NCBI GenBank assembly: GCA_018401955.1
Contig: JAGYJT010000012.1
Span: forward strand, 10,303 to 74,302
Origin: Chitinophagales bacterium
Lineage (GTDB): Bacteria; Bacteroidota; Bacteroidia; Chitinophagales; CAIOSU01
Length of the DNA: 64,000 nt
Direction of reading: 5' to 3'
The notes below the pieces were generated by a model. The model saw nothing but the letters and a program-made list of their open reading frames with translations. It had not been told where the DNA came from and searched no databases. Below are positions 30,349-48,976 of this stretch, piece after piece; position 1 is the stretch's first letter; the number at the start of each line of letters is the position of its first letter. The position numbers and the translations under genes were made by a program.

Positions 30349-30359
30349 TTATCTGCTCC

Positions 30360-30980: not shown

Positions 30981-30997
30981 TTTAAACTCCTAAAAAA

Positions 30998-31474
30998 TTA
31001 TTTAGAACCATTTCCAAATCCGACGCCTCTGGTTGTGGAAGTTTTCTTCTCACTGAACAGCGGCATACGGGGGTCACTTTGACGCATGAAGTTGTTATCC
31101 ACAGACTCCATTTGGGCTGCGTTTTGTTTACGGTAAAAGCTATTGCGCGAATCTACCAATTCTTCTGGCATCTTGCACAGTAATAGACCGCCTAACTCAA
31201 CGTTCCCGTTTTTATCGCCTGCGAGCATAAGCTCGGGGTGGTCAAGAGCTTTGACCGGTTCCCAGCCTTCACGGGTTTTTTTGGAAACATTCTGCGGAAG
31301 TGCCGCACCTAAAAGGGCAGTAGCAATCCATCGAAATTTCCAACCCGGTTGAGGGGTGGGGTCAGGAAGAGTGCTCGGTGGACTGTATTCCATGCTACGA
31401 GCAGAACTCTCACGTGTTTGAAGGTTTCTGGGCGTGCGCTCTTGCGCGCCGTCACGGCTAATTCGTTCAGACAT
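30998..31474 (-). CDS. Head-module hypothetical protein (158 aa from MSERISRD)
   Basis: GGAG box. ATG 31474 lies 1 nt downstream of the scaffold TAA (TAAAATG). Motif PQPGWKFRWI...REGWEPV. Confidence 0.4.
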   Translation of the reverse strand: MSERISRDGAQERTPRNLQTRESSARSMEYSPPSTLPDPTPQPGWKFRWIATALLGAALPQNVSKKTREGWEPVKALDHPELMLAGDKNGNVELGGLLLCKMPEELVDSRNSFYRKQNAAQMESVDNNFMRQSDPRMPLFSEKKTSTTRGVGFGNGSK

Positions 31475-31475
31475 T

Positions 31476-32420
31476 TTAGGACTCCGATGTAAGTTTAAGG
31501 ACTTCTCTAGCGTACTGCTCATTGGTCAAGTTAAATTTTCTTGCCAGGGCTTCCTGGGTTTTAGTTAATTTAACTTTTGTTTTTCCATTGGCAGATCGTG
31601 TTACAGCGGCTACTACGTTAGCCGGACGTTTACTCGGTTGTTCCTTCTTTGTCTCTCCAAAATAGTCGGGAAACACCTCACGCATGCGAGCGTCTACTCG
31701 CTCGTAATATTCAGCCGATCCCGCAGGAACTCCGGCATTGACCAGTTTTTTGTGCACAGCGTAAGCAAGATTGGTCATTTCATCATCTGCCCCAAACCAA
31801 GAGTTCTTGGTTTGCCACTGAACATCGCGTTCAGTAGGCTGCGGAACCGATTGCTGCTGCGTAGGTTGAATATATACATCATCTTCTTTGGATTGTAAAG
31901 CGGGGGGCTGATAATTTTTTGCAGCTTCAGAACGATATTTAGCTGCCGCAAATTCTTCTTGGGCGTCAATAATCGCATCCGTGTCATAGCTCTCCTGCGC
32001 TGATTTTAATTTCTGCCGAGCCATTTGAAGCTCCATATCCGCCTTGGACTGGAGAACTTCCCCGTAATGAGTGGCCCCTTTACTGAACTGGTCACGCAGT
32101 TTTTTGTTTTCTTCAAAAAGTTGTTGCGCAACCCGGACTGCTTCTTCCCGTTCACGTGCAGCCGCTTCTTTAGCCCGACGTTCATCATGACGAGCGTGCG
32201 TAAGCTCCTTCATCCGTTTCTGGACTTTTTCGCTGTACTCTGCGACCTCTTCATCCGTTGGGTCATTAACTTCACGGTCAAGAGGCTTACGCCCACGGTC
32301 TTGCTCTGGCGTATCGTCAACTACTTCTAGCTCAATATCGCTTTCGTCGGACTCCGTTTCAATTTCTAAATCCTTGTCTTCCACTTCTATTTCATCAGGA
32401 AACTTGTAGTTCTCTGCCAT
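31476..32420 (-). CDS. Scaffolding protein (314 aa)
   Basis: Very acidic N-terminus (EIEVEDKDLEIETESDESDIELEVVDD), charged coiled-coil centre. Position is between the portal and capsid genes. Confidence 0.55.
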   Translation of the reverse strand: MAENYKFPDEIEVEDKDLEIETESDESDIELEVVDDTPEQDRGRKPLDREVNDPTDEEVAEYSEKVQKRMKELTHARHDERRAKEAAAREREEAVRVAQQLFEENKKLRDQFSKGATHYGEVLQSKADMELQMARQKLKSAQESYDTDAIIDAQEEFAAAKYRSEAAKNYQPPALQSKEDDVYIQPTQQQSVPQPTERDVQWQTKNSWFGADDEMTNLAYAVHKKLVNAGVPAGSAEYYERVDARMREVFPDYFGETKKEQPSKRPANVVAAVTRSANGKTKVKLTKTQEALARKFNLTNEQYAREVLKLTSES

Positions 32421-32432
32421 GATTAGCTCCTA

Positions 32433-32789
32433 TTAAGCGCGGGTATACCCACGAGGGTCTTCAACAACGGCTTCAACCTGATCGTCGTTAAGCAGGCGGA
32501 ACTCTCTGCCGTGAATTTTAAAACGAGTTCCTGAGTAAGCACGAACTAACACAAAATCACCTTCTTTACACCAAGGGCCTTGTGGAAACTTACTTTCGTC
32601 TTTGTACGCATCTGGACCTACTTTGACGACAAACAAGACGGTTGTGCTGTGCTCTTCGATCTTTGCCATTGAATCGGGCTTGAGTAGATCGGTGCCGGAA
32701 AACTTATCCTCAACTTCAGGAATAGCACACAGTAATTTCCAGCCGGTTGGGTTTGGCAACTGGGTTGCCTGTTGGGTTTCTTCAGTCAT
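32433..32789 (-). CDS. GroES/Cpn10-like co-chaperonin fold protein (118 aa)
   Basis: By eye it aligns to the GroES pattern: P.G.K/R-L-L...E.K..G..L.P.S...VV.VG......V..GD.VL....G......G.E...L...D..A.VE. Confidence 0.45.
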   Translation of the reverse strand: MTEETQQATQLPNPTGWKLLCAIPEVEDKFSGTDLLKPDSMAKIEEHSTTVLFVVKVGPDAYKDESKFPQGPWCKEGDFVLVRAYSGTRFKIHGREFRLLNDDQVEAVVEDPRGYTRA

Positions 32790-32976
32790 CTATTTCCTCA
32801 GCTTTCTGTGCAAGGTCAAGTAAGTAAGCCTCTGCCATTGCCAGACCTTGAATGACACCGCAGAGTTTTTGATACTGCTCAAAATTTTGACAAGCGCCGC
32901 CTGCAATATCGTCGGCGTAGTTATTCAAATCTTCTCGTATTTTTTTGCGTAGAACCTCTACGAAGTTTTCAATCAC
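32782..32976 (-). CDS. Small hypothetical protein (64 aa)
   Basis: Intact ORF overlapping both neighbours by a few nt; helical, acidic C-terminus. Confidence 0.35.
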   Translation of the reverse strand: MIENFVEVLRKKIREDLNNYADDIAGGACQNFEQYQKLCGVIQGLAMAEAYLLDLAQKAEEIDD

Positions 32977-35441
32977 CGGGTTTTACCTCCTCGTTGTCTG
33001 GATTCCCCAACAGATATGCCGAGTTTCATTCCCTCAAGCTGCTGCTTAATCTTCAGTTCGTCGGCGTCTTTTGCTGCTTTTACTAACAATTCTTGCTCTC
33101 GTAACTTCAATTCGTCAGCTTTTGCTGCCGCATCCACCGCCAGTTCCTTCTCTTTTATAGCGAGTTCAGCCTGTTTAATCTGAATGTCGAGTTGGTCTTT
33201 CTGCGTTTTGCGCTGCTGCTCGGCCTGCTTGAGCATGAGTTCTTGCTGCTGCATCTGTACGATGGGGTCTTGCGCTTGTTGCTGCGCCTGCTTCTGGGCA
33301 ACTTCGGATTGGCTATTTGCCAATACCCGCTTACTTGCTTCTGCTGCCAGACGCGAAACCTGAATTTCAAGCTCCTCGGGCATCTCTGTATCGGGTGCAG
33401 GTAACGGCATCCCAAGCTGCTCTTCAAGCCTACGGCGGTAGGCAAACCCAACGTGCTCAGCGATATGCGCCTGCATCGCCGCCACAAGCTGGTTGGCTCT
33501 TGGATTTTGCCCAATAAGCTGCGTAACAAGTGGATCCTGCATTGCGTTCATGTGTACCTGAATATGTGCCTCATGGTCTTGATAAATAAAGGCTTTTACG
33601 GGCTTGCCCTTGAGCACATCCATGTTCTCAGACACGGGGTCCACCGGCTTCTCATCATCCTCTGTAGGTATAAGCTTGGCGGCGTTCTTAATGCCAAGGG
33701 TTTCAAGCATTTGCCTGTGAAGCTGTGGGAGGTTGTAAATCTGAGGCGCCGTCTGGGAAAGCTGGATAACTGCCTGATACTGCACAATCCTCTGAGACAT
33801 CGTTGCCGCATTGGGGTCCGAGACAGGAATAACCTCCACCATGTCGTAGTCGGCCTGTTTGGCCCGCCTTGACCCCTCAATCGGATCGTAGTCGTAATCA
33901 TCGTCGGTGTAATCCCTAATGATTGCAGACAAAAGCTTTAACTCATGTTTAAAGGCGTAGTGCACCCGAGCTTGAACCGCAGACATCACCTTGAGCATGC
34001 GCTCCAACAACGCCAGCGTTGTACCCACAGGGGCCTGTGCCGACATGTCCGAAATCTTCATGTCTGATGTTGCGGCAAAACGACGCCCTTCTTCAACAAT
34101 CGTCCCTAACAACTGGTACAGCGTCGCACTGGGTTCTTTATAGGGTAGTGGCAGAATGTTATCCCGCAGAGCGCCAGAGCCAATGTCCACATCTCTAAAC
34201 TCCCCCGGTGCAATCGGTGTGTCGTCCCCCTTGATGCGTAGTCCTCTGGATTTCAGTCCCCCCGGCAGGTTGGATAACGTACCGGCATCCACAAGCTGCC
34301 TCATGATCGACGTTGCCGACTTGGCAAACCCACCAATTAGGTGAAACAGCCCGAAGCCGTAGAACCCAAAGCCAGGGATGTAAACGTAGTGCACGAAATG
34401 GTCGCGTCTTTTTTGCGTTACATCGTCTTCGTAATAGTTACGCCTAACTGCCAGTACTTCACCTGTGCCCTCTACCACTGTGACCACGTATGGTATGGCA
34501 ATGCCTGTAGGCTCCCCGTCTTCTAGGTCTTCATAGCCCGGTAGGTCAAGGTTGACGTGTACTTCATACAACACATAGCGGTCGTCATTAATTGACGACA
34601 TTCCGCTTTCTTTGTCCTTTTTCTCCTGCAACTCATTTTTTAGCCTGGAGGGCTCACCCAGTTCAATATCACGGTAAAAGCCTGCTACCTGAAGCTTGCG
34701 TATCTCATTGCTGGTTTTGTACATACGATGTGTTACACGCTCAGCACTCTCCAACCCCACCGCGCCGTAGGACACGATAATGTCTTCTGCTGGAACGAAA
34801 ACCGATGTCTGGCGCTGGAGGTTGGGGTCGAAGTAGACTTTCTTAAATGCGGAACCAGTGGCTGGCAAGTTCCACAACATCCTTTCGTGCTCCATGCGGA
34901 ACTCAGGCATGCGCTCGGTCAACTCGTAGTTCATGTCCTCCTTGACTCGGGCTGCAGCGTCTTCTTTCTCGCGTGTGTCTTTACCAATAATTTTTGTACG
35001 TACAGGCCCTTGAGCAGGAAATGTCTCCATGATTGTTTCGGACTGAAAACGAACGACCGCTTCTGTAATCATGGGGTGGAACACACCACAGGCGCCGTCC
35101 CACGGCTCAGTACGCTCTTCGTATTTCAAGCCAAGCAGCACAAGCCCTTCTTTATACGATTTCTCCCAGTCTTTTCGGGAATCAAGGTCGTCTTTAATAT
35201 TTTGTAAAAGCTCGTTACCAAGGCTCTGCAGTTCAGCTTCGTCTATTTCTTCTGCAAGGTTGGCATAAAAATCAGGCCCGCCTTCGCCTTCGGTAATTTC
35301 AAGAATTTCTTCCCCACCCACGCTAACGCGTACAGCTTCTGGGTCCTCAATCTCAATTTCAAGATCCGGTTCACCCATCAGCGCTTGAGCGTCTTCCTCA
35401 ATGCCTTGGGGTGCTTGGTACAGTGCTTTATCAATAGCCAT
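32973..35441 (-). CDS. Portal protein (822 aa) with long Q/K/E coiled-coil C-terminal extension
   Basis: Largest head-module ORF, one gene downstream of the terminase, with AAGAGG box. C-terminal ~150 aa are Q/E/K-rich (QKQAQQQAQDPIVQMQQQELMLKQAEQQRK...). Confidence 0.7.
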   Translation of the reverse strand: MAIDKALYQAPQGIEEDAQALMGEPDLEIEIEDPEAVRVSVGGEEILEITEGEGGPDFYANLAEEIDEAELQSLGNELLQNIKDDLDSRKDWEKSYKEGLVLLGLKYEERTEPWDGACGVFHPMITEAVVRFQSETIMETFPAQGPVRTKIIGKDTREKEDAAARVKEDMNYELTERMPEFRMEHERMLWNLPATGSAFKKVYFDPNLQRQTSVFVPAEDIIVSYGAVGLESAERVTHRMYKTSNEIRKLQVAGFYRDIELGEPSRLKNELQEKKDKESGMSSINDDRYVLYEVHVNLDLPGYEDLEDGEPTGIAIPYVVTVVEGTGEVLAVRRNYYEDDVTQKRRDHFVHYVYIPGFGFYGFGLFHLIGGFAKSATSIMRQLVDAGTLSNLPGGLKSRGLRIKGDDTPIAPGEFRDVDIGSGALRDNILPLPYKEPSATLYQLLGTIVEEGRRFAATSDMKISDMSAQAPVGTTLALLERMLKVMSAVQARVHYAFKHELKLLSAIIRDYTDDDYDYDPIEGSRRAKQADYDMVEVIPVSDPNAATMSQRIVQYQAVIQLSQTAPQIYNLPQLHRQMLETLGIKNAAKLIPTEDDEKPVDPVSENMDVLKGKPVKAFIYQDHEAHIQVHMNAMQDPLVTQLIGQNPRANQLVAAMQAHIAEHVGFAYRRRLEEQLGMPLPAPDTEMPEELEIQVSRLAAEASKRVLANSQSEVAQKQAQQQAQDPIVQMQQQELMLKQAEQQRKTQKDQLDIQIKQAELAIKEKELAVDAAAKADELKLREQELLVKAAKDADELKIKQQLEGMKLGISVGESRQRGGKTR

Positions 35442-35450
35442 AATGACCTC

Positions 35451-36308
35451 TTAAATTAATTTCTTGTTGCCCGCGTTTTCAACGTAGCCGCCCTCAGCAA
35501 ACCCAATCATTCGTTTAAATTTGTCAATGGTGCCTGTGGTTGGCTCTTCAACCCGAGTCATAGGTTCTATATCATGCCTGTCTAACCGGGTCATGCGAAG
35601 TCCTGTTAGGGCGTTATAAGTTTCCCGCACATCTCGATCTTTAAACAGCGTTTTACGAAGCACTGGATCCTTAGTTAAATCCACGCCTTGTGTATCTTCA
35701 ATGGATGCAAGGGTGGCAAGCTGTTCATATAAAAGGTTCGGAAGTTTTCCAGCCTTTGCTTGAAATTCAAGCATCTTTGGGTCCAAGTATGCCGACTCAA
35801 TACCGTACTTTTCTTTGAGGTATGGATACGCTTCAGAGGCGGCTCTTACAAAATCAGTCCTCTTTCTCCCTAAATACTTCTTTTCTTCTTCTCCGGCTTT
35901 GTTTTTTCTAGTTGTAAAATCACCAAGTAACTCATCAAACTTTTGGTTAATGTTTGCAGCAGCCCCCAATTGTTTCCTAGCCAGTATGTGGTTGGCTTCA
36001 TGCGAAGCTGTTTGTGCAGGATTTTTGTTCTCTGGGTTCATCCACATTTCATCAGGAATACCCATATTTGCATAGTTATCCCTCAAGTACGGGCTTTCCA
36101 TTACATACCCGCCAGTGCTTGATCCTTCAAGCGCATAATCTCTACGCACCTGTGGATTTACCAAGCCCTGATAGGTAGAAGAACTTCCTTCTGTACCCTT
36201 TAAAAGCGCGGGTAGCCCACCGGGCACTGCTTCTGTAAAGCGTCGTTGACGATTTACCCTTTGTTGCACTTCTGGGTGCAGCTCTTCGTAGGATCGGTCT
36301 TTAGCCAT
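35451..36308 (-). CDS. HExxH-motif protein (putative zinc metallopeptidase), 285 aa
   Basis: TASHEANHILARKQLG contains HEANH. C-terminus IGFAEGGYVENAGNKKLI. Lies between the terminase and the portal. Confidence 0.4.
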   Translation of the reverse strand: MAKDRSYEELHPEVQQRVNRQRRFTEAVPGGLPALLKGTEGSSSTYQGLVNPQVRRDYALEGSSTGGYVMESPYLRDNYANMGIPDEMWMNPENKNPAQTASHEANHILARKQLGAAANINQKFDELLGDFTTRKNKAGEEEKKYLGRKRTDFVRAASEAYPYLKEKYGIESAYLDPKMLEFQAKAGKLPNLLYEQLATLASIEDTQGVDLTKDPVLRKTLFKDRDVRETYNALTGLRMTRLDRHDIEPMTRVEEPTTGTIDKFKRMIGFAEGGYVENAGNKKLI

Positions 36309-36316
36309 GCTGGCTC

Positions 36317-37831
36317 CTAGTAATATGCCGCCTTGCGGCTACGGAAGTACATTGGTTCATCGGCTTCATCGCTTGGTAGCGTAATAAACCCCCCATTTCT
36401 AAAGCGTAACAGCGCCTGGGTCATAGTGTCCACGTAGTCGTCATGCTCTCCAACTGGAAACGCCACAATCTCTTCAATCACATCCCGCGCCCATCGTGTA
36501 TCGGGCGCCCAAACGCACCCACTGGCAAATAAATCTGAAACAGCATTGACACGGGTAATCTTATCGTTGCCTCGACTGGGGGTAAATTCGTCAACAGGTA
36601 TACCCATGCGGCGTAATTCTTGAATTAGCGGGGCGCCAGCAGCTTTTTTTTCTACTAAAAACGCATCAGGCTCCCACTCTTTCCATTGCTTGTAAGCAAC
36701 CTCTTTAAGTTCGGGAAATTCCATTCTATCTTTAAATGCGTCCAAAAGTATAATACTGGGTCGGCTGCCCTCTTCTTCGTTATACCAAATACCCCAGGTT
36801 GTGCACGCCGTGTAGTCGGCTGTGGTCTTGGCTTCGTGCGCCGTGTCCCAAGACTGATAATAAATTCGCACTGCGGCGGGTCTTCTGGCTCCCAAATACG
36901 CCAGTGACTTCTCTTAATAAACGCTGCAGAATCAAGTGTTGGCTGCTGCATGTACTGGGCGTTCCAATACCGGGGGTCCATCGCCATTTTCTTTTGCTGT
37001 AGCTGCTCCAGGGGCCACTGCTCAGGCCAAAGGCTCTTTTCTTTCTCAGTATCCTCAAAAAGGATAGCCGGAAGTTCCACAATTTCCCAAGGATCTGCGT
37101 CTGGATTACGCGCTTGAAAGCTAAGAAGCCGCCCTGTTAAGTCCACCAGGCTCCATCGTGTCATTACCACGATAATTCGGCCCCCTGGCATCAACCGCTG
37201 TAGCGGTCCGGTCTGAAACCACGACCAGGCATTGTCAAATGTGGCTCTGCTATTGGCTTTTATATCCTGTTCGGAATGTGGGTCATCAATAACAAACAAA
37301 TCGGCACCGCGTCCTGCAAGTGCACCACCCACACCCACCGCGTAATATTGACCGCCCTCGTTTGTTGACCATTTACCGGCAGCTTTTTGGTCGTCTGCGA
37401 CTTTCGTTCCTGGAAAAACTTGAGCATAGTCCTCTCCTTCAATGAGGTTACGCACTCTTCGGCCAAAATCTTCCGACAATCCGGCGGTGTGGGTCGCCAT
37501 AATGATCTTTGTCTCGGGGTACTGCCCTAAAAACCACGCTGGAAACAAGTAAGAGGCAAACTCTGACTTACCCATACGGGGGGCGATGTTAATAATCACC
37601 CTCTTTTTCTTACCAGAAGCCACGTCCGCAAAAATCTTCGCCAGTTTCCTGTGGTGCGCACCCTCTTTAAACCCAGGATACACCTCCTTTGCAAAGGAAA
37701 TCATGTCCCCTGGCATTACGCAGCCGTAGGCGGCGCTCTTGTTCGTCCAGTTCTTCAAGAAATTCAAGCTTTTGCTGCGGTGACATGCTTTTAAGCAGCA
37801 CCTGCAGCTCTGGGTCAGTCATTCTCTTCAT
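36317..37831 (-). pseudogene. Terminase large subunit, interrupted by 2 frameshifts
   Basis: Walker A-like IAPRMGKSE and Walker B DLFVIDDPHSEQD. Nuclease half YYQSWDTAHEAKTTADYTACTTWGIW...GEHDDYVDTMTQAL. ORFs 37667-37969, 36655-37767 and 36317-36895 overlap in different frames (shifts ~37,700-37,770 and ~36,860-36,890). Confidence 0.85.
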
Positions 37832-38400
37832 CTTCGACGGTCTCAACCTCTTGGGCTTCAACTTCAATCGTTTTGTGCAAGGCATCAAGCTTTTGTTTAA
37901 TGCGCTCGTCCAGCTCCACATCGCTAAGATCGGATTTCTTAATCTCAATGCGCTCAGTAAACAGCCCAACCTCGGTAACTTTACCCAGCATCTCCAAAGC
38001 CTTTAAGCGTATTCGGGCATCAGGGTGCTCGGTCTCTTCCAATATCTTTGCCACCGCCATTCCACGTATATGCTGCGCCTGCTCCACAAACTGCCAGTCG
38101 TATGCCGTTAACATCCCCACCAAGCGCTGCACTGCAACAGGCGTCTTGATCTGAGTCAGGCTGGTTTTTGCCTTCTCGTGATCCACTAATGAATCTTTAA
38201 ACGCCTCCGTGACCTGCTTATGCTCCATTTCCGTCAGAATCTCGTCCTCGGTTTTGGCGCCCAGCTCCGTTAACCAGTCGCTGGTGTTGATCTGCGCTTC
38301 AAGGATTTGTTCGCGTTTGCTTTTTTCATAGGCAAAAAGGTTTCCAGGGGTACGCTAAGTACCTCCGGTGGGGGCGCGGATTCTTGTAGGTGTTCGAGCA
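37815..38400 (-). pseudogene. Terminase small-subunit candidate, interrupted by 1 frameshift
   Basis: ATG 38400 follows AGAGGAATTACAAT. That frame stops after 37 codons, while the adjacent frame is open from ~38,355 and runs into MEHKQVTEAF...(ORF 37815-38228). The shift lies in the T5/A6 runs at ~38,320-38,345. Position is immediately upstream of TerL. Confidence 0.45.
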
Positions 38401-38487
38401 TATTGTAATTCCTCTAATTTAGTTTATACTTATCATGCGCTTGTGTGCAACACAAGCGTTTCTCCTTTCTGTATTCTCCTCCTTATG

Positions 38488-38520
38488 CCCCCGTTCACAG
38501 GCGGGGGCTTTTTGTTTTGC
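38488..38520 (+). terminator. Plus-strand intrinsic-terminator-like hairpin in the phage terminal region
   Basis: GCCCCCG-ttcacagg-CGGGGGC followed by TTTTTGTTTTG. A second 9-bp perfect hairpin (CGCTTGTGT-gca-ACACAAGCG) lies at 38438-38458. Confidence 0.5.
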
Positions 38521-38582
38521 CGTTGTCTATTTTTTGACAATGGTTATGCGGATTTTTGTAGAAAATTTAAGCAGGTGTGAAA

Positions 38583-38645
38583 GGGGGTAAGCACAAATCT
38601 ATGCGCGTTAAAGTGGGGGATAAGCACAAATCTATGCGCATTAAA
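38583..38645. repeat. Two tandem ~31-bp direct repeats
   Basis: GGGGGTAAGCACAAATCTATGCGCGTTAAA (38583-38612) and GGGGGATAAGCACAAATCTATGCGCATTAAA (38615-38645), followed by a third GGGGGG start. Confidence 0.85.
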
Positions 38646-38831
38646 ATGTAGGGGGGTCCGATACCAGTCCCTTTCCCTTGGCTCGGCGTTCCTTTGGCTG
38701 CATAAGGAGGTGTCATAACCAAAATCTACGAGCTATTTTAGGTCGCTGCGTAGCTGACCCGGCCTCCCCAGCAAATATACAAAAGTTGGGCGAGTTTATG
38801 CTGACGGCGTAACTTCTTGAAGATGGGGCGT

Positions 38832-41021
38832 TTAATCTTTTATAGAAAATTTTGACAGTTGCGGCCGTGCAGCTGCGAAACACTGCTCCTTGTGCGGTCT
38901 GCCAAGGCCTAGTAGCATTGGGGGATGTAAAGCTCTCTTGTGGGGTCTGATATTCCAAAAAAGGCCAGTCAAACCAGCCAGACCTAAATACCTAATAAGT
39001 GTTATAATGTAAGTAAGCCAATTGGGTAGGCCATTTGACGGCAAGCCGAACGCCCGATGTTTCCAGAATATTGTGGGTACTTCAGTGCAAAGTAGCACAC
39101 AGAGGGTGCCTGTAAACAAAAAGCTCTTGCCATCCAGTTTGTTGTTGGCTGGGGTAACTTCCTCGTGCTGTGTTTCGATGTTTACACCCAGTTCTTGTAG
39201 TTTTTTTAGTAGCTGAATATTGGCTTCGGTATGGAAGAACTCATACACGCTTTCGGCTACTTTGGGGCCAACGTCTTCTAGTTGGGTCAGTTTTTCTTGG
39301 TCCCAGTCAATATAGTCAAGTGCTGATTTTACCTGTTTGGCCAATACTTTGGCAGTAGTATTGCCAATATGCCTTATGCCCAAGGCGGTAATCAATCGCC
39401 AAAGTGGTTGGGTCTTGCTGTTTTCAATGCCGGTTTTTAGGTTGGCCACACTCTTTTCTTTCCAGCCTTCCAAAGCCAAAATGCGGGCATAATCCAATTG
39501 GTAAACATCTTCTAGCTGATTGATGATGCCTTCAGCCATAAAACGCTTTACTATATCTTTACCCAAGCCATCAATATCCATAGCACCTTTGCTCACAAAA
39601 TGAATGATGCGTTCTTCTTGCTGCACCGGGCATTCAATATTTACGCAGCGCCAAATAGCCTCCCCCTCGGGCTTTACCAAGGTAGAGCTACACGATGGGC
39701 ATTCGCGCGGGAAATCGATAGCAGTTTCGTTGCCGGTGCGCAAAGTAGTTACCACTCCCGCAATGTATGGTATTACTTCCCCAGCACGCTCCACTACCAC
39801 GGTATCGCCAATCTTAATATCTTTTTCCAGTATAAAATCCTCGTTGTGCAACGATATGGAGCTGATAGTAACACCAGCCAACGGCACTGGCGTTATTTTA
39901 GCAACTGGCGTTATCGCTCCCGTGCGGCCTACCTGAAACTCCACCCGCTCCAAGGTGCTTTGCGCTTGGCGGGCTTTAAATTTGAAAGCTATGGCCCAGC
40001 GCGGGTGGTGAGAGGTGCTACCGGTTTCTTGTTGTTTTTGGTAGTCGTTCAGTTTTATCACCATCCCATCAATCTCGATAGGGAACACGTTGCGTTTTTC
40101 TTCCCACTCGCCTACATGGGCTACTACTTGTGGTATAGTAGGGTATAGGCCAATCTCTTTTACCGGGGCATTAAAACCTAGTTTGTACAAGGTTTCAATA
40201 CTCTCATAGTGGGTTTTAATACCCATGCCCAATACATTGTTGCCATCCTTATCAATGGCATATCCTATTTGGTATATTACCGCCTCCAAGCCACGGCGGG
40301 CCACTTCGGCGCTATCCTTTAATCGCAACGCACCTGATGCCGTGTTGCGGGAGTTTTGAAACGTTTTTAGCCCCTGTTCGCGACGCTTTTCGTTCATTGC
40401 CTCAAACACATCATTGCGAATAACCACTTCGCCACGCACTTCAGCCTTCACTATGCCGTATTTGCTAAACTCGGCCCTAAGGGGTATTGATTTTATTACC
40501 TTGGCATTGTTGGTAATATCTTCGCCCATTACACCATCGCCACGGGTGGCGGCGCGCACCATAATATCGTTTTCATAAAGAATGGCAATGCTAGAGCCAT
40601 CAAATTTGGGCTCCACACAGTATTCAATACCTTCGTTGCCCACTATTTTGCGCAAGCGGTTGTCAAACTCCGTAAGGTCTTCTTCGTTATAACTATTGTC
40701 CAACGATAGCATGGGCAAGTTATGCTCAACCGGCACAAACGCCTCGGTTAGCCCCATGGCCACCCTTTGGGTTGGCGACTCGGGTGATTGTAGCGAAGGG
40801 TAATTTGCCTCAATATCTTTAAGGCGCTTGAAAAGCTGGTCGTAGTCAAAATCAGTAATTACCGCTTCAGAGCGCACATAATATCTCCAGTCGTGGTACT
40901 TAATGGTATCCCTTAAATCTTTTACTTCTTTATCAGCAGCCTCTAGGCTTTGCGGTGCAGGGTTTGCCAGTATTTGTTGGCTTAGTTCCAGGTATTCACG
41001 TTCTTGCGCTGCGGTGTACAT
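38832..41021 (-). pseudogene. ligA: NAD+-dependent DNA ligase LigA, truncated in the BRCT domain at ~39,100 and fused to ~89 unrelated codons
   Basis: Adenylation motif CVEPKFDGSS, Zn finger CPSCSSTLVKPEGEAIWRCVNIECP, HhH region, and BRCT start DGKSFLFTGTL. After GTL (nt ~39,102) the text becomes CVLLCTEVPTIFWKHRAFG..., with no BRCT similarity. Confidence 0.85.
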
Positions 41022-41133: not shown

Positions 41134-41943
41134 CTATTTTCTACATACTATTATGGGTTCTCTGGGGTCAACGGCATATTTGGTATAATCTTGGTTTGGG
41201 CTGAGTTTGTTCAGCCTTAAGAGTTTTACATCGAAACCCACATAAGCAAGTCGCTCTAAATAATCGGTTCCGTACTGCCTTACATGGTCTTTTTGCCCAA
41301 AATACTTTTCGCGTAATTCATCACTTTCCAAAAAAGCGTCTTCTTGGGTATGTTTTAGTTTTTCATCCAAAGGCACTTGAAATATGCCCCACCCGCCTAT
41401 TTTCATTACTCTAAAAAACTCACTCATTACCCGTAAATCATCTTGTACGTGTTCTAGTAAGTGGTTGGCAATCACCACATCAAAAGTCTCATCTTTAAAA
41501 GGTATGGCATGAGCATCAAAATGATATTGTGCCCACGGGCTACACAGGTCGGCGGTGATGTAATCTAAATTATTTTGCTTTTGCAGCGCCCTTCTTAGGC
41601 ACACCTCTGGCGCTATGTGCAAAACCTTTAACGGCTCACGAAGCAGGTTGGTGTGCTCTTTGAGGTATAGAAACAAAAGACGATGCCGCTCTAGCGATAA
41701 AGAACCGGGCGCCAGTGCATTGGGGCGTGGGTTTACATACCCGTAGGGTAACAAGCTACGGTAGCCTCTGTTGTCAATGGGGTCAATGTAATTTTTTCCC
41801 CTCAGGTAAAGGGCTATCAATGGTGAGGCGAGTTCTGCAAAGCGTTGCAGCTGGTTTCGCCCAAACCCATTAAGTGCCCATTTTATCATCATTGGTAAAA
41901 ACATAGCAAATGGCGTTGATTGATACGAAAGTACTGGCATCAT
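41134..41943 (-). CDS. Class I SAM-dependent methyltransferase
   Basis: FDVVIANHLLEHVQDDLRVMSEFFRVMKIGGWGIFQVP is a typical Methyltransf_11 post-I/II region. The start codon is uncertain. Confidence 0.65.
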   Translation of the reverse strand: MMPVLSYQSTPFAMFLPMMIKWALNGFGRNQLQRFAELASPLIALYLRGKNYIDPIDNRGYRSLLPYGYVNPRPNALAPGSLSLERHRLLFLYLKEHTNLLREPLKVLHIAPEVCLRRALQKQNNLDYITADLCSPWAQYHFDAHAIPFKDETFDVVIANHLLEHVQDDLRVMSEFFRVMKIGGWGIFQVPLDEKLKHTQEDAFLESDELREKYFGQKDHVRQYGTDYLERLAYVGFDVKLLRLNKLSPNQDYTKYAVDPREPIIVCRK

Positions 41944-42121
41944 TTGCTTTGGACAATTACAAAATTTCGCTGTTATCGGGCAGTTGCATCACTGTAATTG
42001 GTTTGGTTGTATTTTTATTACCATAAATTGAGGATGCTAAAACCGCTGAATATTAGGATGATAACAGCACTATTGGAGCTGAACAGAATTGAAGCCTTAT
42101 CAACGAGAAGATTATTTATAC

Positions 42122-43138
42122 CTACGTGGCTTTTTCTTTTCCTCCCCAAGCTTTTCGAAAAATGTTCCAATAACTGGTTTCTACACAAGCATTATCAAGC
42201 AAGCCACGTTTTTTGAGCATTTGGTGCATAGTTCTCAGGTTATACGGTGCTACAGCGGGCATAAGGTGGTGCTCAAGGTGATAGTTTACATGGTGTGGTG
42301 CAAACAGCAAGCGTTCGTACCACCTGGCATAGGTAGTACGGGTATTATTCAATGGGTCGGTGGTATCTGGTGTAATGGCGTGCTCGGCTATGGAGCGTAC
42401 CCTGGCAAACAGCATGGCAGTGGTGAGCATACTGCCTATCCAAATAAGGTATAGCCATGGTTGGCCAAAAGCTAGCATTGTAATAAAAATGATAGTGTTG
42501 ATGATAATGGGGCCCGCTAAATTACCAGCACCGTATCGTAATCGTTCATAGTATTTTTTGCCGGTATTATCTATGCGCTCTACTAAGCCGCCCAATTGGT
42601 ATTTGAAGTTTCCAAGGTGCATCATTACAATCCCAAAGTGGGCCTTAATGCCACTAACACCGCTTATATCTCTACCTATTTTTCGGGCAAAGCTTTTTGG
42701 GGAGGTTGGATAGCCCGCCTTAAGGTGCAAATCGGGGTCGTTAACTGTACCGGTGTGTTGGTGATGGCTTAGGTGATAGGTTCGGTATGCTTCCATATCG
42801 TGCCAAATTGGCGCACCGCATAGCCATTTACCTACCAATTGGTTTTGCTTTTTTGTTTTGAAAAGGGCATTGTGAGAAGTATCGTGCATTAATATAGCTA
42901 GTGCAAGTTGCCTACCACCTATAATTACAAATGCAGCAGCAACGGTAAATGCATTGGGCCATAAACCTACCAATACAAACGTGGCAATAATAAGGCCCCA
43001 CGTGAACATAACTTCCCAAGCTGCTTTCCAGTTGTTGCGTTGCATTAGTTGGCGCACTTCGTCTTTTGAGAAGATTTTTAAAACGTTCATTATCCTAAAG
43101 TTATCATTTAAAGATATGGCAACCCAGTATGTTGACAT
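42122..43138 (-). CDS. Membrane fatty-acid desaturase
   Basis: Three His boxes (HDTSHN, HLSHHQH, HHVNYHLEHH) plus TM segments. The start may be the internal MNVLKIF (43090). Confidence 0.85.
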   Translation of the reverse strand: MSTYWVAISLNDNFRIMNVLKIFSKDEVRQLMQRNNWKAAWEVMFTWGLIIATFVLVGLWPNAFTVAAAFVIIGGRQLALAILMHDTSHNALFKTKKQNQLVGKWLCGAPIWHDMEAYRTYHLSHHQHTGTVNDPDLHLKAGYPTSPKSFARKIGRDISGVSGIKAHFGIVMMHLGNFKYQLGGLVERIDNTGKKYYERLRYGAGNLAGPIIINTIIFITMLAFGQPWLYLIWIGSMLTTAMLFARVRSIAEHAITPDTTDPLNNTRTTYARWYERLLFAPHHVNYHLEHHLMPAVAPYNLRTMHQMLKKRGLLDNACVETSYWNIFRKAWGGKEKAT

Positions 43139-43190
43139 AAAAAAAGGGGCACCAACTAGGCGCCCCTTAAATTAGCTTTACCAAATGCAG

Positions 43191-45578
43191 TTAACGATTG
43201 AGCACCAAACGACGAATGCCTGAAGCACCATCGGCTGTTACTTTTACAATGTATATACCATTAGCTTCGGCGCTAAGGTCAAGTGTGTGGCTAACTTGAG
43301 CCAAACCGTTTAGGTTGGTTTCACTAACCAAAGCACCTAGGGTGTTGAATATTTGGATGGTAACATTAGTATTGTTGGCCAAATCAGCTTTTACAGTAAC
43401 ATTGCCACTAGTTGGGTTAGGGAATACATCAAAGTTGATGCTGCTTACCACATTAGCAATACCAACAACATCGGCAATACGCAGGTTTTGTACTGTAGAG
43501 CATCCGTTGTTATCAATTACGGTAATTTCATAAACGCCAGTTGCCAAACCAGTTTGATTTGCACTTGATGAACCATTGCTCCAACCAATAGTATAAGGAG
43601 CCTGTCCACCTTTAATATCAAGTGTTACATCGCCCGTTCCGTTGTTAATTGTTACAGTGGGGTTAAGCATAACTGGGCCATAAACCGTGAAGGTTTGGGT
43701 AACATTAATACCACTGTTGTTTTCCATAGTTACAGTGTAGTTGCCAGGTGCAAGGCTAAAAGCAACTGCACCCGTTTGGCCATTGCTCCAAGTAAAAGTA
43801 CAATCAGTGCAACCTACTGCGCTTACCGTAATTTCTCCCTCTTTGCCGCCTCCACAAGCACTGTGGGTAATGCTTGCCAGGTCAACAGCTGCAACGTTTT
43901 GAGCGATATCAACACTGGTTACTTCACTTTCGTTAAGTTCAAACTCCAAGGCATTTAATATTTCACGATCTCTAGAGGAAGAACCAAATTTTTGCACAAC
44001 AGCCACCAAATGAACTTGGTTAACATCCCAACCTGCCGGCAAGGTGTAGGTAAATGTATGACTGTATGGCGTAAGGGCAACTATGTTATTTGGTATTACA
44101 CTTGCTTGGCCCCAAGCACCACCCATAAAGTGACGCGCCACATCGCGATGCACAAAACCTACAATAGGGTTGCCAGCTTGGTAGTAAGGGTGTCCAGTCA
44201 CATTGTTGTATGCGTTTACCTGGTTATAACCGGTACCGGTGCCTACCACGCTATCTTCTACTATAAACACATTTAGTCGATAATCGCCAGTAAGGTCGGT
44301 CATAAACTCGGCTGAAACATTTACCGTTAATTCGCGACTGCTTGAATTATAAGTGTTATCGGCATTGATAGAGACAATACTAGTCTCTGTCAAACGGGTT
44401 TCTGCATAATTGGTCCACTTGGTTCTGCTTGTCGCAATATTCGATTCACCATCGTATAAAACCCTGTCAATAGTTCCAGACGGGAAACTACCGCCTGTAA
44501 CCAGGTTTCCAACAGTGTTACCATCAGGAAAATCCATAGCGTCAGCATTATGCACACCTACTCCTATTGCATTAGGGTTGCGGTCAAGTATATCGTATAG
44601 TACCACGGTTCCATCAGGGCAAAACTGGCACCAAGCGCCAGTATGGTCCTCTATCACAACAAATTTTTCAACGTTACCCAACAACACATTAACTGTGGCA
44701 TAACCAACATTGTTGGCCGACAAGTCATTTTGACCGTTTGGTAAGCTAAGGTCAACATCAATGGTTAGTTCAGCACTAGTAAGGCTAATGATATTGGTGT
44801 TGTGCGTAACAGTTTTTGTAGCACCTGGGGCCAAACCAAGGGCATTTACCGTTTCGGTGTGGTTCGTAGTGCCGCCATCTGTAGTCCAATTAAAAACAAA
44901 AGAGTTAAGGGTTGCAGTGCCGTAGTTTTTTACGGTAATGGTTACCGGCACGGTGCCAACTATAGACGAACTCGGAACATCTACTGATATTAGCTGCACA
45001 TCATTAGGCGTTGGTTGAAAAACTTTCACATCATCAACAGCAACACCATCGGCCCAATCTCCACCATCGTTGTGCACAAAGGCAAATTTTACATTGCTTT
45101 GGTTCAAGTAAGCGCTTAGGTCTATGTTCAAATCTTGCCAATCAGCCGATGTACCTATGGTTTGCATTACGCTCCAGCTCGACCCTCCATCGGTGCTTAT
45201 CTCCAAGGTTGCTGTTGAGCCGTATGCACCTGTGTGATATGCTGAAAACGCCAATATACCTGTGGTCATTGTAGTAAGGTTCAAGGTAGGGGTAATCAAC
45301 ATATCCCTATCGGCTAAATTTTGTGTTGCCGCCTGGTTGTCGTATTTGTCATCGTTGCTGGCAGCAAATTTAGTATGAGCAGGTGGTGTAAAATAACCAC
45401 TACCCAGCGAAGTGTTGGTGCCAAACTCCCATCCTCGTGATGGGGTATTTTGTACACGGCTCCAGCCTGATGGTAACGAACCCGACTCAAAATCTTGATC
45501 CAGTAATATTATCTGTGAAAATGCGGTAGAGGTTGCAAGCAACGCAAAGGAAAAAATGAGGAAGTAGATTTTTTTCAT
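43191..45578 (-). CDS. T9SS-sorted secreted multidomain protein (Omp28-like/thioredoxin-like CxxC region, SprB-type repeats, Por_Secre_tail)
   Basis: Signal peptide MKKIYFLIFSFALLATSTAFSQ. HTGAWCQFCPDG. Repeats ...TFTWSNGQTG / YTIGWSNGSS. C-terminus FPNPTSGNVTV...GIYIVKVTADGASGIRRLVLNR is typical of the T9SS C-terminal sorting domain. Confidence 0.7.
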   Translation of the reverse strand: MKKIYFLIFSFALLATSTAFSQIILLDQDFESGSLPSGWSRVQNTPSRGWEFGTNTSLGSGYFTPPAHTKFAASNDDKYDNQAATQNLADRDMLITPTLNLTTMTTGILAFSAYHTGAYGSTATLEISTDGGSSWSVMQTIGTSADWQDLNIDLSAYLNQSNVKFAFVHNDGGDWADGVAVDDVKVFQPTPNDVQLISVDVPSSSIVGTVPVTITVKNYGTATLNSFVFNWTTDGGTTNHTETVNALGLAPGATKTVTHNTNIISLTSAELTIDVDLSLPNGQNDLSANNVGYATVNVLLGNVEKFVVIEDHTGAWCQFCPDGTVVLYDILDRNPNAIGVGVHNADAMDFPDGNTVGNLVTGGSFPSGTIDRVLYDGESNIATSRTKWTNYAETRLTETSIVSINADNTYNSSSRELTVNVSAEFMTDLTGDYRLNVFIVEDSVVGTGTGYNQVNAYNNVTGHPYYQAGNPIVGFVHRDVARHFMGGAWGQASVIPNNIVALTPYSHTFTYTLPAGWDVNQVHLVAVVQKFGSSSRDREILNALEFELNESEVTSVDIAQNVAAVDLASITHSACGGGKEGEITVSAVGCTDCTFTWSNGQTGAVAFSLAPGNYTVTMENNSGINVTQTFTVYGPVMLNPTVTINNGTGDVTLDIKGGQAPYTIGWSNGSSSANQTGLATGVYEITVIDNNGCSTVQNLRIADVVGIANVVSSINFDVFPNPTSGNVTVKADLANNTNVTIQIFNTLGALVSETNLNGLAQVSHTLDLSAEANGIYIVKVTADGASGIRRLVLNR

Positions 45579-45806
45579 GGAAAGTAGTTGATTGTTAGGA
45601 CGGTACATTATGATAACAGTACCGCAATATAACTAATCTCTTAACTTTTTTTTAATGAAGAGTTAATTTTTTTCGTGCTCGCATAAATCAGGTAAACAAA
45701 CCTGGGCAATAGTCAAACTCTTTGTGAATGCTAAAACATGGGTGAAAATATTTGCGATGTAATTAATTTTGAAGTATCTTAGTGTTATTGTGTAAAAACC
45801 TTACTG

Positions 45807-46526
45807 ATGCAAAAAATACTTGCTGTAATTATTATTGCTACATTTTTGAGTTTCGGAACTATTTCAGCTCAAAACTTTTCAATTAGTAGCGACTCTTTGT
45901 TTGGCACTGCTGATGCAAATAGGGCAGAGTATGTGTTGGATATTGATATTGTTAATTTAGGTGCTACTAAGCCAATTTCGCTTAAGTGGCATCGCTACCA
46001 AAATGTATATGACAATAATTGGTTAGGTAATCAGATTTGTGTTTACGGCTCTTGTTACTATTACACCGTAGATACAGGTACCATAGAAGTTGGAGCGGGC
46101 AGTTCTGAAGAGTTTTCTGCGCATTTCGGTAACAATAACTTTCCAGGAGATGGAGTACAGCGCGTAAGTTTTTACGAAGAAAGTGATAGTGCCGGTACTG
46201 TACAAACTACTTATTTTGGTACTAATCTTACTCCGTTTACCTCTGTAGCTACTCCTATGAGCAATAGCTATGCACCTTCTGACATACAAATTTACCCTAA
46301 CCCAGCGAAAGAGTTTGTTATTGTAAAACGTCCTGAACTACTCAACATTAGCCGAATAGAGGTTTACAATATGTTGGGTCTTAAAGTTGTTACCCAAAAA
46401 GTAGACCCTGACAATACTAACAATCGTGTTGATTTGCTTGATTTGGCCAAAGGCGTATATATGCTGCGTATTTTCGACAACAACAATAATGTAATTCTTA
46501 CCAAATCTATTTCGAAGATTAGGTAA
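45807..46526 (+). CDS. T9SS C-terminal-domain secreted protein (239 aa)
   Basis: Signal peptide. C-terminus IYPNPAKEFVIV...VYNMLGLKV...LAKGVYMLRIFD...KSISKIR matches the Por_Secre_tail pattern. Confidence 0.7.
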   Translation: MQKILAVIIIATFLSFGTISAQNFSISSDSLFGTADANRAEYVLDIDIVNLGATKPISLKWHRYQNVYDNNWLGNQICVYGSCYYYTVDTGTIEVGAGSSEEFSAHFGNNNFPGDGVQRVSFYEESDSAGTVQTTYFGTNLTPFTSVATPMSNSYAPSDIQIYPNPAKEFVIVKRPELLNISRIEVYNMLGLKVVTQKVDPDNTNNRVDLLDLAKGVYMLRIFDNNNNVILTKSISKIR

Positions 46527-46594
46527 TATAAACTTTTCGCAAGAGGGGATTTTAATCCTTATCCATACAATAGGCTACCAGCAAAGGTGGCCTA

Positions 46595-47812
46595 TTGTGT
46601 TTTAATGCAACTAAACCTTTAGATTTAAACACAAATCCACTTGCCATGATAGCATTTATTGAGAGCGTTGTTAACCAATTTGGTGGTAGGTTAGCGGGTA
46701 GCAGCGCCGAGAAAGCGGCACAGCAATATGTTCGAGATTGTTTTGAAACAATAGGTGCCAGTGCCGAGATACAGCCATTTACGGCTGCCCTTACTGCCAA
46801 GTTTGTAGCACTTAAGCTGTTTACAGTGGTTTATTTTATTAGTCTTGGCTTGTATTGGCTCTCGGTACCTGGGGCGGCCATTTTGGCTTTAGTAAACGGT
46901 ATATTATTTGTCGGTCACTTTTTAACCTATCGTAATTGGCTCGATTTTTTGTTTCCTCAAATGGAGTCATCAAACGTAGAGGCTACTTTGGAACCTCAGG
47001 GCGAAGTAATACGAACGATATTAGTAGCTGGCCATATTGATAGCGTGCGGGAGTTTCAATGGTGGTATCATCTAAAAAATTTTGGCGGTATACTTACCAT
47101 TGTAGCTGGGGCACTGTTTGTGTTACAAGGCATTGTTTTATTGTTGGTTTGGCTTATAGGCTCGGCATGGGGCGATATTGCCTGGTTGGTGCTGGCAGTG
47201 CTTTCGCCTGCCACCTTTACCATGTACGCTATGCATGGCAAACAGGTAGTTGATGGTGCTATGGATAACCTTACCGGTGTGGCTGTAGCGGTAGAAATGG
47301 CCAAAGTGTTTGCTGATGAAACCCAACCAGGAAAAAGCAAGCTTAAACATACCCGTTTGCGTTTGGTAAGTTTTGGTAGCGAAGAGTGTGGGTTGCGTGG
47401 CTCAAACGCATACGCAATGCGCAATAAAGAGCAGTTGTTGCGCGAAAATGCTCTACTGGTAAATATTGATACGATAAAGGATGCTGAGCATCTTACTATA
47501 TTAAAGAGTGAGATAAATACCCGTGTAAAGTATGATAAAGCATTAGTTGCAGCCATCAACCAAGCTTTTGTAGATTGTGGTGTGCCTGTTAAGCAAGTTA
47601 ACTTAAGCGTGGGGGCTACCGATGGTAGTGCTTTTGGCATACATAAGCTGCCGGCAATATCAATAATTGGGATGAATGCCAGCGCGTTTGACCCTTGCTA
47701 CCATACTCGGCTTGATAAACTCGAAAACCTTAACCCACAAGCATTGGAAACATTTAAAGGGGTGCTGATAAATTTTATTGAAGGGTGGGATAGTGGTAAG
47801 TATAAGGCGTAA
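46595..47812 (+). CDS. M28-family membrane-associated aminopeptidase
   Basis: VAGHIDSV, DNLTGVAVAVEMAKVF, FGSEECGLRGSNAY, GATDGSAF and YHTRLD are M28 metal-ligand/catalytic motifs, with internal TM segments. The start codon is uncertain. Confidence 0.75.
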   Translation: MCFNATKPLDLNTNPLAMIAFIESVVNQFGGRLAGSSAEKAAQQYVRDCFETIGASAEIQPFTAALTAKFVALKLFTVVYFISLGLYWLSVPGAAILALVNGILFVGHFLTYRNWLDFLFPQMESSNVEATLEPQGEVIRTILVAGHIDSVREFQWWYHLKNFGGILTIVAGALFVLQGIVLLLVWLIGSAWGDIAWLVLAVLSPATFTMYAMHGKQVVDGAMDNLTGVAVAVEMAKVFADETQPGKSKLKHTRLRLVSFGSEECGLRGSNAYAMRNKEQLLRENALLVNIDTIKDAEHLTILKSEINTRVKYDKALVAAINQAFVDCGVPVKQVNLSVGATDGSAFGIHKLPAISIIGMNASAFDPCYHTRLDKLENLNPQALETFKGVLINFIEGWDSGKYKA

Positions 47813-47818
47813 GGTTTG

Positions 47819-48976
47819 TTAAAATGCTTCGCCTATGGCTAAGTAAAAACCCCGTGAGCCATCTTGCCCAAAGCCAGCATCAAATCGAATATTGATGCGC
47901 TCTTTGGCATCAATAGTAAAGCGCAAACCACCACCACCGGCAAATTTTAGGTTGTTGAAGCCTGCGCTGCTGTATGGTCCCATGGTGTTTCCCATAGAAG
48001 CAAAGGCCACCCCTATGAATTTCCAAAAAAGCGGAAAACGGTATTCACCCGTTAGGGCGTACATGTGCTGGTCTCTGTTACGGCCAAAAAAATAACCTCT
48101 CATTAGTTCGCTGCCACCAAATGTCGCCATCATTTTAAAAGGTGGCATCGCGCTATTTGCCTGCGCTACACCTTGCAAGGCTACAATGTGACTGCCTTTG
48201 CCGGGGTTAAAATATTTGCGTACATCTAAGCGCACACTGGTTAAATCTGTATTGCCGCCAAAGTACCTTGAGTATTGGTGGTGCGAGAAAATCATGTACC
48301 AGCCTTTAAAAGGGAAAAGGTTGTGATCCCTAGTGTCGTAAATAATGGCTAGCCCCAACCCAGATGCCGTGTACCCACCTTCGCCAGGAATGTCGTTGGT
48401 GTCAAAAAGCCCGTTTTCTTCAGTCTTCATTCCATACATATACTCAAAGCGGTACTGGGCACCAAGCTGAAAATGTGGTGCAAACTGCTTGGTAAAACGG
48501 TTGCGCACCAATACATAGTCTGACGAGAAACGCTCTTGATCTTGCTCTTTGGTTTCGTTTCCGAGCCCAAAAAACGAATCGGGATAACGTTGCCAAAGGA
48601 CTGCACCAGTTAGTCGGTAGCGGTCTTTTTTCCAGAAAATATCCCAATTGGGGTTAACAATGAACTGTTTGTTAAGCGTGAATATAAAAGCAAACCCTGT
48701 GGTTGATAGATTACCGGTACTATCTGTTGATGGTGTTCTGAACAACACTTGCGTACCCAAGCCAAATCCCCATCTGGTTTCGGGGCTATAATTTATCAGT
48801 GGTACTGGTATTACTCTTACCTTGTAGGGATTACCCGATGGGCCGAAGTATTTTTTTAGCTTACTTACTTTAGAAGGCATTTGGCCTTGTGCATACAATG
48901 GCGCATAGCTAAAACATAGCAATAGCAACCATAAAAATATGGCAGGTGCGCGCAAAAGTGTTAATAATGAAAGCAT
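47819..48976 (-). CDS. Omp85/BamA-family (bacterial surface antigen) outer-membrane beta-barrel protein
   Basis: Signal peptide. C-terminal barrel signature ...GGSELMRGYFFGRNRD...GGGGLRFTI...RFDAGFG...YLAIGEAF ending in Phe. Confidence 0.55.
   Translation of the reverse strand: MLSLLTLLRAPAIFLWLLLLCFSYAPLYAQGQMPSKVSKLKKYFGPSGNPYKVRVIPVPLINYSPETRWGFGLGTQVLFRTPSTDSTGNLSTTGFAFIFTLNKQFIVNPNWDIFWKKDRYRLTGAVLWQRYPDSFFGLGNETKEQDQERFSSDYVLVRNRFTKQFAPHFQLGAQYRFEYMYGMKTEENGLFDTNDIPGEGGYTASGLGLAIIYDTRDHNLFPFKGWYMIFSHHQYSRYFGGNTDLTSVRLDVRKYFNPGKGSHIVALQGVAQANSAMPPFKMMATFGGSELMRGYFFGRNRDQHMYALTGEYRFPLFWKFIGVAFASMGNTMGPYSSAGFNNLKFAGGGGLRFTIDAKERINIRFDAGFGQDGSRGFYLAIGEAF

Follow-up and report, generated by a model that had tools for sequence, protein, structure and literature searches.

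In a contig assigned to a Chitinophagales bacterium, a block of phage genes directly abuts a gene for the DNA ligase LigA that breaks off inside its BRCT domain. The locus raises the question of whether a phage has inserted into an essential replication gene and left the cell with a truncated ligase, or whether the contig joins DNA of two unrelated replicons. The original prediction had put forward both readings, insertion and chimera, without ranking them. The analysis of the window (the whole stretch of DNA under study, 64,000 nucleotides) favours the chimera and leaves the insertion a lesser weight: we infer that the join at 39101/39102 is probably that of a chimeric contig, an artefact of assembly or library preparation.

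The truncated ligA gene

The ligA ORF extends over 38832..41021 on the minus strand and encodes 729 aa. Its Pfam matches (PF01653, PF03120, PF03119 and PF12826) comprise the Ia/adenylation, OB, zinc-finger and HhH domains, and the adenylation motif KxDG is present in the translation as EPKFDG; the BRCT domain, PF00533, was not found in the ORF by Pfam scan. The protein has the core domain set of a LigA and lacks the C-terminal BRCT domain of the class. All of its nearest LigA homologues, proteins of 702 aa from Chitinophagales, have this domain. The best homologue (P0001) aligns to the ORF with 91% aa identity over residues 1-641 only; its BRCT domain comprises residues 626-685, of which the ligA of the window keeps only 626-640. 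The cut is located after Leu640, ~15 residues into the BRCT domain. Codons 1-640 of the host gene, comprising the Ia, adenylation, OB, zinc-finger and HhH domains and the first ~15 BRCT residues, occupy 39102..41021 (minus strand).

At the DNA level, the homology of the window to the ligA loci of five relatives ends at 39102/39103, with 79-81% nt identity to L001, L005 and L086. The last of these, the best match among the GTDB matches listed, belongs to a different species (79.5% nt identity) and has an intact ligA. The P0001 alignment and the DNA of the relatives both place the end of LigA homology where the original prediction had put it, at ~39,102 and the start of the BRCT domain. Also borne out is its description of the following ~89 codons as unrelated: this read-through extension of the ORF (38832..39101, minus strand) has no match to LigA and is homologous to the phage intergenic DNA of L253, L027 and L251, and a six-frame view of the segment reveals no plausible coding. 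Judged by this homology, the tail is phage non-coding DNA that is open in the ligA frame by chance, and not a gene end.

Six-frame translation, together with tblastn using the BRCT segment of the relatives, detected no BRCT-like coding in any frame of 38640..39110. A search for the missing BRCT fragment had been proposed as a check for the sequence beyond the left end of the phage block; tblastn within the window did not find the 62-aa piece, returning chance matches only across the entire 64 kb (best E = 0.26).

Downstream of ligA, the relatives have a convergent FtsX/MacB-type permease gene and an aconitase gene, neither of which was found in the window by blastn or tblastx. On the other side of ligA, a methyltransferase and a fatty-acid desaturase gene (41134..43138, minus strand; assigned by Pfam) form an insertion relative to the otherwise syntenic relatives. 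Synteny with L005 and L001 extends over 43140..52570, and ligA together with 13 kb is collinear with the Chitinophagales relatives. Exact look-ups of three proteins of the window (the ligA product, a 497-aa phage protein and the desaturase) retrieved no record.

The phage block and its affiliation

The window is phage throughout 1..39101, with structural, lysis and packaging genes filling 1..38401; the functions recognized are a DNA ejection protein, an endolysin, tail fibres, the major head protein, a GroES-like Cpn10, the portal and the large terminase. At the left edge, a giant ORF (1..5892, minus strand; at least 1964 aa) runs off the window; its homologues have at least 1969 aa in L167 and L169, in both of which they run off the end of the locus, and a complete 2036 aa in L188. 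Since this ORF leaves the left edge, the phage block continues past the window. A structural gene encoding 629-714 aa in relatives is spread over four frames at 10879..12836 (minus strand; tblastn with the ORFs of L192, L193, L188, L167 and L169), and a gene of ~152 aa over two frames at 13284..13699 (minus strand), with the break at ~13557.

The packaging region lies at the right end of the block. The GroES-like Cpn10 (118 aa, 32433..32789) is followed by the portal gene (822 aa, 32973..35441, minus strand) and by an extra gene of 285 aa (35451..36308, minus strand) in the interval between portal and terL, which is absent in L027, L019 and L251-L253 and has no Pfam or PHROG match. The large terminase gene terL (36317..37882, minus strand; Pfam Terminase_6N/6C) is distributed over three frames, and its counterpart in L027 is an intact gene of 517 aa. 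The outermost gene, of 195 aa (37815..38401, minus strand), is intact in L027 and L019 and carries a 1-nt deletion at ~38313 in the window. It holds the small-terminase position; no similarity to the TerS of CRP-901 was detectable, and the assignment is one of position only. The distance of ~700 bp at which the original prediction had placed the terminase genes corresponds to the start of this gene at 38401, 700 nt left of the junction; the start of terL is ~1.2 kb away on the same side.

By tblastn, the portal has 38-46% aa identity to those of HTVC023P/027P, CRP-901/902 and Pag-Yong1 and 35% to that of Caulobacter phage RW, and 304 relatives are present in IMG/VR. The phage part of the window can be followed collinearly in two of the environmental relatives, L027 and L019, with 77-93% nt identity. 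Judged by its portal, terL, GroES-like gene and syntenic structural module, the phage is an HTVC023P-type podovirus. It shares with this group (Pelagibacter phages HTVC023P/027P, Roseobacter phages CRP-901/902, Planktothrix phage Pag-Yong1 and Caulobacter phage RW; genomes of 50-65 kb) a terL adjoining the portal, the Cpn10, and a long single-strand structural module with a divergent early region. In contrast to the named isolates, it falls into an uncultured branch consisting only of environmental contigs from IMG/VR and JGI metagenomes, and it differs further by the 285-aa gene and by a 284-nt intergenic insert. The window covers the structural arm; the early/replication arm lies outside it.

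No integrase was reported for HTVC023P/027P and 443 related environmental sequences, and the group was described as strictly lytic (bioRxiv 10.1101/2019.12.14.876532); no lysogeny genes were found in CRP-901/902 either (PMC10149686). Homologues of the group were reported in single-cell genomes of Bacteroidetes and Verrucomicrobia (bioRxiv 10.1101/2019.12.14.876532), so that the group as a whole may include phages with a Bacteroidota host.

Anatomy of the junction

Between the 195-aa gene and the junction lies a phage intergenic region whose elements can be assigned by comparison with the relatives; the segments 38355-38662 and 38838-38888 match L027. Two terminator-like hairpins with T-runs (38437..38521, plus strand) are followed by a variable insert of 284 nt (38554..38861, plus strand), whose borders are formed by the two copies, 38554-38577 and 38838-38861, of a 24-nt direct repeat. 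The insert holds two 33-nt tandem repeats (38583-38648), and is missing in L251-L253 and partial in L027. The early-promoter and 5'UTR region (38838..39101, plus strand) contains a conserved TTTATAGAAAATTTGACAGTTG box and an extended -10 element (TGTTATAAT) at 39000-39008; the DNA of the 89-codon tail, which includes this element, also carries a hairpin. The segment 38838..39061 has 76% identity to L253, and a four-way alignment was also made. In L027, L251 and L253, the homologous divergent intergenic region is followed by the RBS and ATG of the first early gene, which is on the other strand. In the window, the early-promoter region points to the right, toward a first early gene that is absent. 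A search with a gapped pattern of the promoter box returned only L027 again.

The junction itself (39099..39105) consists of phage sequence ending in ...GTAGCACACA, followed by GAG at 39102-39104. Side by side, the final phage bases of the window, ...GTAGCACACAGAG, correspond to ...CCAGCACACAGAGAGGAAACTGCTATG in the relatives: the break in the phage falls at the RBS belonging to the first early gene, and host ligA resumes with GAG, the codon of Leu640 on the other strand. This GAG is common to ligA and the phage RBS region (CACACAGAGAGGAAACTGCTATG in the relatives) and constitutes a microhomology of 3 nt; no long repeat is shared by phage and host at the join. Illegitimate recombination in vivo typically shows a microhomology of this length, which speaks against a chimera. 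The sequence across the junction is contiguous and contains no N's.

The original prediction had noted neither integrase, tRNA, direct repeat nor reconstituted 3' gene end at this edge, and this description holds. ARAGORN found no tRNA in the 64-kb window, the junction sequence is not repeated elsewhere in the window and has no flanking direct repeat, and no integrase, recombinase or excision family was found among the 24 largest phage ORFs scanned, in a phage block that extends past the window. Matches to Rfam at the edge were all below threshold. Exact 20-42-mers from 38950-39120 gave no matches, or chance 20-mer matches, in IMG/VR and the JGI metagenomes.

The contigs of the relatives tend to end in the same zone. 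The start of the 195-aa gene is present in 48 contigs of relatives, and 20 of these stop within the 800 nt that lie upstream; the hazard of contig termination there is 0.19-0.28 per 400 nt, vs 0.02-0.12 further out. The junction of the window, 700 nt upstream of the 195-aa gene, is located inside this zone of frequent ends. In L251, L252 and the 48.8-kb L253, the contig reaches 115-150 nt into the first early gene and stops there; an exact coincidence of the relatives' contig ends with the junction was rejected, the ends of L251-L253 being close but not identical. The CRP-901 record begins inside a gene and is uninformative on termini. The zone may be a hypervariable region, or it may contain a physical terminus or the boundary of a terminal repeat. 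The 'phage genome end' of the original prediction is upheld in part: on a circular map, the break falls in the interval that separates the early promoter/5'UTR from the first early gene, and contig ends are unusually frequent in this zone, where a physical terminus is no more than a possibility.

Translation signals and composition

The two sides of the junction differ in their translation signals. A Shine-Dalgarno (SD) core, counted at -16..-4 relative to the first start codon, for which the first ATG was taken if there was one, precedes 22 of 42 phage ORFs vs 1 of 20 host ORFs (Fisher p = 2e-4); AGGAG or GGAGG precedes 11 of the 42 phage ORFs, including that of the major head protein, vs none of the 20 host ORFs (Fisher p = 0.012). 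Bacteroidetes ribosomes do not recognize SD sequences (PMC7797042), and Cellulophaga phages have no SD signal (bioRxiv 10.1101/2021.04.21.440840). Raw counts of the Bacteroidota -7 motif (TAnnTTTG) fail to separate the two sides.

The comparison of GC and k-mer profiles that had been suggested for the two sides also reveals a difference. The GC content is 0.47-0.50 on the phage side vs 0.43-0.45 on the host side, ~5 points higher for the phage, and the correlation of tetranucleotide content is 0.93 within the host and 0.79-0.91 within the phage vs 0.59-0.77 across the junction. The direction of the GC difference is opposite to that in the cultured relative CRP-901, whose GC content is slightly below that of its host (PMC10149686). 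By its SD signals, GC and tetranucleotides, the phage does not fit this host well, whereas a prophage adapted to it would.

Frameshifts and sequence quality

Judged against the intact genes of relatives, the phage part carries at least seven frameshifts in 39 kb. Besides the breaks in the 195-aa and 152-aa genes, these comprise two deletions in terL, of 2 nt at ~37712 and of 1 nt at ~36858, and frame breaks at ~12750, ~11635 and ~11218 in the structural gene of 629-714 aa. Three of the frameshifts were mapped by DNA alignment and are deletions in the window, in contexts of dinucleotide scale; the remaining four are mostly consistent with 1-nt deletions, by arithmetic from the frames. There are no premature in-frame stops in the phage genes, and the alignments to homologues are unbroken up to each frame break. 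A clustering of frameshifts beside the junction was considered and rejected, four more being located at 11.2-13.6 kb.

All ten host genes compared with L005 are full length and in a single frame, and the other host ORFs look intact. If the rate of the phage part applied to the host DNA, its 24.9 kb should contain ~4.5 frameshifts; the Poisson probability of none is ~0.01. Relatives from two JGI assemblies have occasional frameshifts too, at other positions, which fits an error-prone consensus for such contigs. The change in error profile is compatible with a different read depth or consensus quality on each side, for which a chimera would account but a prophage in single copy would not, or with real pseudogenes in the phage. 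Frameshifts confined to the phage would also be expected of a decaying trapped prophage, which counts against a chimera.

Origin of the join

Composition and quality profile are both discontinuous exactly at the join, which has no recombination signature. These features could have arisen in the following manner: a chimeric read or molecule formed during library preparation, or the assembler, would have joined two unrelated fragments. One would be the structural arm of a lytic HTVC023P-type podovirus, ending in the early-promoter/5'UTR region, and the other a piece of Chitinophagales chromosome ending by chance inside ligA. The organism would then have a normal ligA, and the phage would infect another host. 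Such an origin is favoured by the combination of a lytic group without integrase, the mismatch to the host, the shift in composition and indel profile and the missing insertion signature; it would also explain why an essential gene is cut at an arbitrary codon and why the cut coincides with the hot spot of contig ends. Chimeric contigs from metagenomes, MAGs and single cells, which arise through chimeric long reads, MDA chimeras or false scaffold links, have the same abrupt change of replicon at an arbitrary host codon. The usual k-mer-mediated misjoin has a shared repeat, whereas the join of the window has none; since only GAG is shared, a misjoin in a de Bruijn graph is unlikely, and a chimeric read or molecule must be assumed. 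With a well-covered host genome, an assembler can normally be expected to extend ligA into its true continuation, a consideration that weighs against a chimera.

The alternatives differ in the event that they place in the cell. A real accidental insertion, in which a circularized or linear genome of a lytic-type phage recombined illegitimately into ligA via the 3-nt microhomology, is unlikely. It would have left a trapped prophage, incapable of expression and decaying by frameshifts, and a ligase without most of its BRCT domain and with a nonsense tail of 89 residues. The contiguous sequence across the junction, with neither N's nor a repeat, and the GAG at the join are in keeping with such an event, as is the confinement of the frameshifts to the phage (two in terL, three in the 629-714-aa structural/tail gene and one each in the 195-aa and 152-aa genes), with the checked host genes intact. 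BRCT-deleted LigA retains partial activity in E. coli, and the LigB of E. coli naturally has no BRCT domain; with the partial activity of BRCT-less ligases, a cell could survive the truncation. The window protein resembles E. coli LigB in its domain set, Ia-adenylation-OB-Zn-HhH without a functional BRCT, but the loss is an abrupt cut in a LigA orthologue that is 91% identical to its full-length relatives, and not the state of an evolved lineage. Against the insertion stands the lifestyle of the phage group, which is described as strictly lytic and without integrase; the SD-rich genes and higher GC content of the phage in the window argue against its replication in Bacteroidota, and selection should act strongly against at least 39 kb of foreign DNA within an essential gene of replication. 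Frameshifts aside, the phage genes are intact and syntenic with those of free relatives, the central part of TerL having 97.9% aa identity, and the alignments to phage homologues contain neither a premature stop nor a large deletion.

A temperate prophage at an attB site in the 3' part of ligA, with its integrase and second att site beyond the left edge, is very improbable. Many prophages target the 3' ends of genes, and the phage block does run off the window, so that its far end is out of view; but no integrase is known in the phage group, no att-like repeat is present at the visible edge, and the 3' end of ligA is not reconstituted, its place being taken by a tail of unrelated phage non-coding DNA. 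In the relatives, this point simply falls in the 5'UTR of an early gene, and no recombinase is close by. Interruption of a host gene by a prophage is seen with phi10403S of Listeria in comK and SpyCIM1 in mutL, examples of 'active lysogeny'. The arrangement in the window, where phage DNA adjoins a truncated gene of host DNA metabolism, is reminiscent of these; however, phi10403S and SpyCIM1 have integrases, att sites and a precise excision that restores the gene, none of which is visible in the window, and the phage group of the window is lytic. A transposable, Mu-like phage was rejected: the edge has packaging genes and an early promoter but no transposase, and the corresponding point is internal and contiguous in the relatives. 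Virtually no credence can be given to an intact ligA whose truncation is only apparent, produced by a sequencing frameshift or a local rearrangement near 39100; although the phage part does carry indel errors or mutations, no frame of the interval searched at the junction encodes a BRCT domain, and the homology is replaced abruptly by phage intergenic DNA.

Implications

If the join were real, the locus would represent an unusual case of lytic-phage trapping in an essential replication gene, and a BRCT-truncated LigA would be tolerated in nature. That a lytic podovirus apparently adapted to a host outside Bacteroidota was captured across phyla by microhomology inside ligA, leaving a viable BRCT-truncated ligase and an accidental prophage in the first stages of decay, is a rather doubtful proposition. 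If the join is artificial, which we consider the likely case, the locus would provide neither a host assignment for an abundant uncultured lineage of freshwater phages nor evidence for an essential ligase without BRCT domain. The phage part would be contamination of the bin, and the DNA to the left of 39101 would belong to the virus of another organism instead of a prophage of this Chitinophagales genome.

Frameshifts in the phage genes

At least seven frameshifts break phage genes of the window (10879-12836, 13284-13699 and 36317-38401) whose copies in relatives are whole: two lie in terL, the large terminase gene, one in the 195-aa gene at the small-terminase position, three in a structural gene of 629-714 aa and one in a 152-aa gene. 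The three that could be placed by DNA alignment are 1-2-nt deletions. In-frame stop codons were not seen in the frameshifted phage genes, and none of the ten host-side genes that were checked carries a frameshift.

Further proteins of the phage arm

The left edge is occupied by a giant ORF, at least 1964 aa long (1-5892, reverse strand), which continues past the window edge and has no PHROG match. In relatives the corresponding position holds ORFs of roughly 2000 aa or longer: a complete ORF of 2036 aa in one (L188) and ORFs of 1969+ and 2173+ aa, both cut by the locus end, in two others (L169 and L167, respectively). The giant ORF probably encodes an ejected internal virion protein.

Flanked by the portal gene and terL is a 285-aa ORF (35451-36308, reverse strand), which the close relatives L027, L019 and L251-L253 lack and for which neither Pfam nor PHROG gives a match; its C-terminal 'AEGGYV' resembles Gly-Gly motifs of two putative internal virion proteins, one of 422 aa and one of 497 aa. 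A GroES-like co-chaperonin, a hallmark of HTVC023P-type phages, is present in the phage of the window (32433-32789, reverse strand; Pfam Cpn10, E = 1.7e-5), as is a 219-aa protein (26501-27160, reverse strand) matching a PHROG labelled ferredoxin, in the moron/auxiliary metabolic gene category. The tail-fibre region also encodes two proteins that are very rich in glycine and contain long GGxGG runs (16991-17866 and 18968-19693, reverse strand); the C-terminal tail of the latter is odd, which might be a sign of one more frameshift.

Host-side island

Genes for a SAM-methyltransferase and a fatty-acid desaturase (41026-43197) separate ligA from the Omp28/Por-secretion-tail gene. Since ligA and the Omp28/Por-secretion-tail gene directly adjoin each other in three relatives (L001, L005 and L086), the segment constitutes a small host-side island.

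The intergenic region and contig ends

Near the junction, the phage intergenic region contains a 284-nt insert (38554-38861) with a 24-nt direct repeat (TTTTRTAGAAAATTT..) at its bounds and two tandem 33-mers inside (38583-38648). The insert, which is absent in L251-L253 and found in part in L027, could represent iterons or pac-type sites, or else a small mobile insert. Inside the 89-codon extension of the ligA ORF, ~125 nt beyond the junction, lies a terminator-like hairpin with a T-run (38963-38979, reverse strand), overlapping in part with phage intergenic sequence conserved in L253.

Across many metagenomes, contigs of this phage group (L006-L085, L251-L253) end preferentially in the 800-nt zone upstream of the 195-aa gene, where 20 of 48 stop; this preference suggests that the site is a genome terminus or a terminal repeat, or that the early region is hypervariable there.
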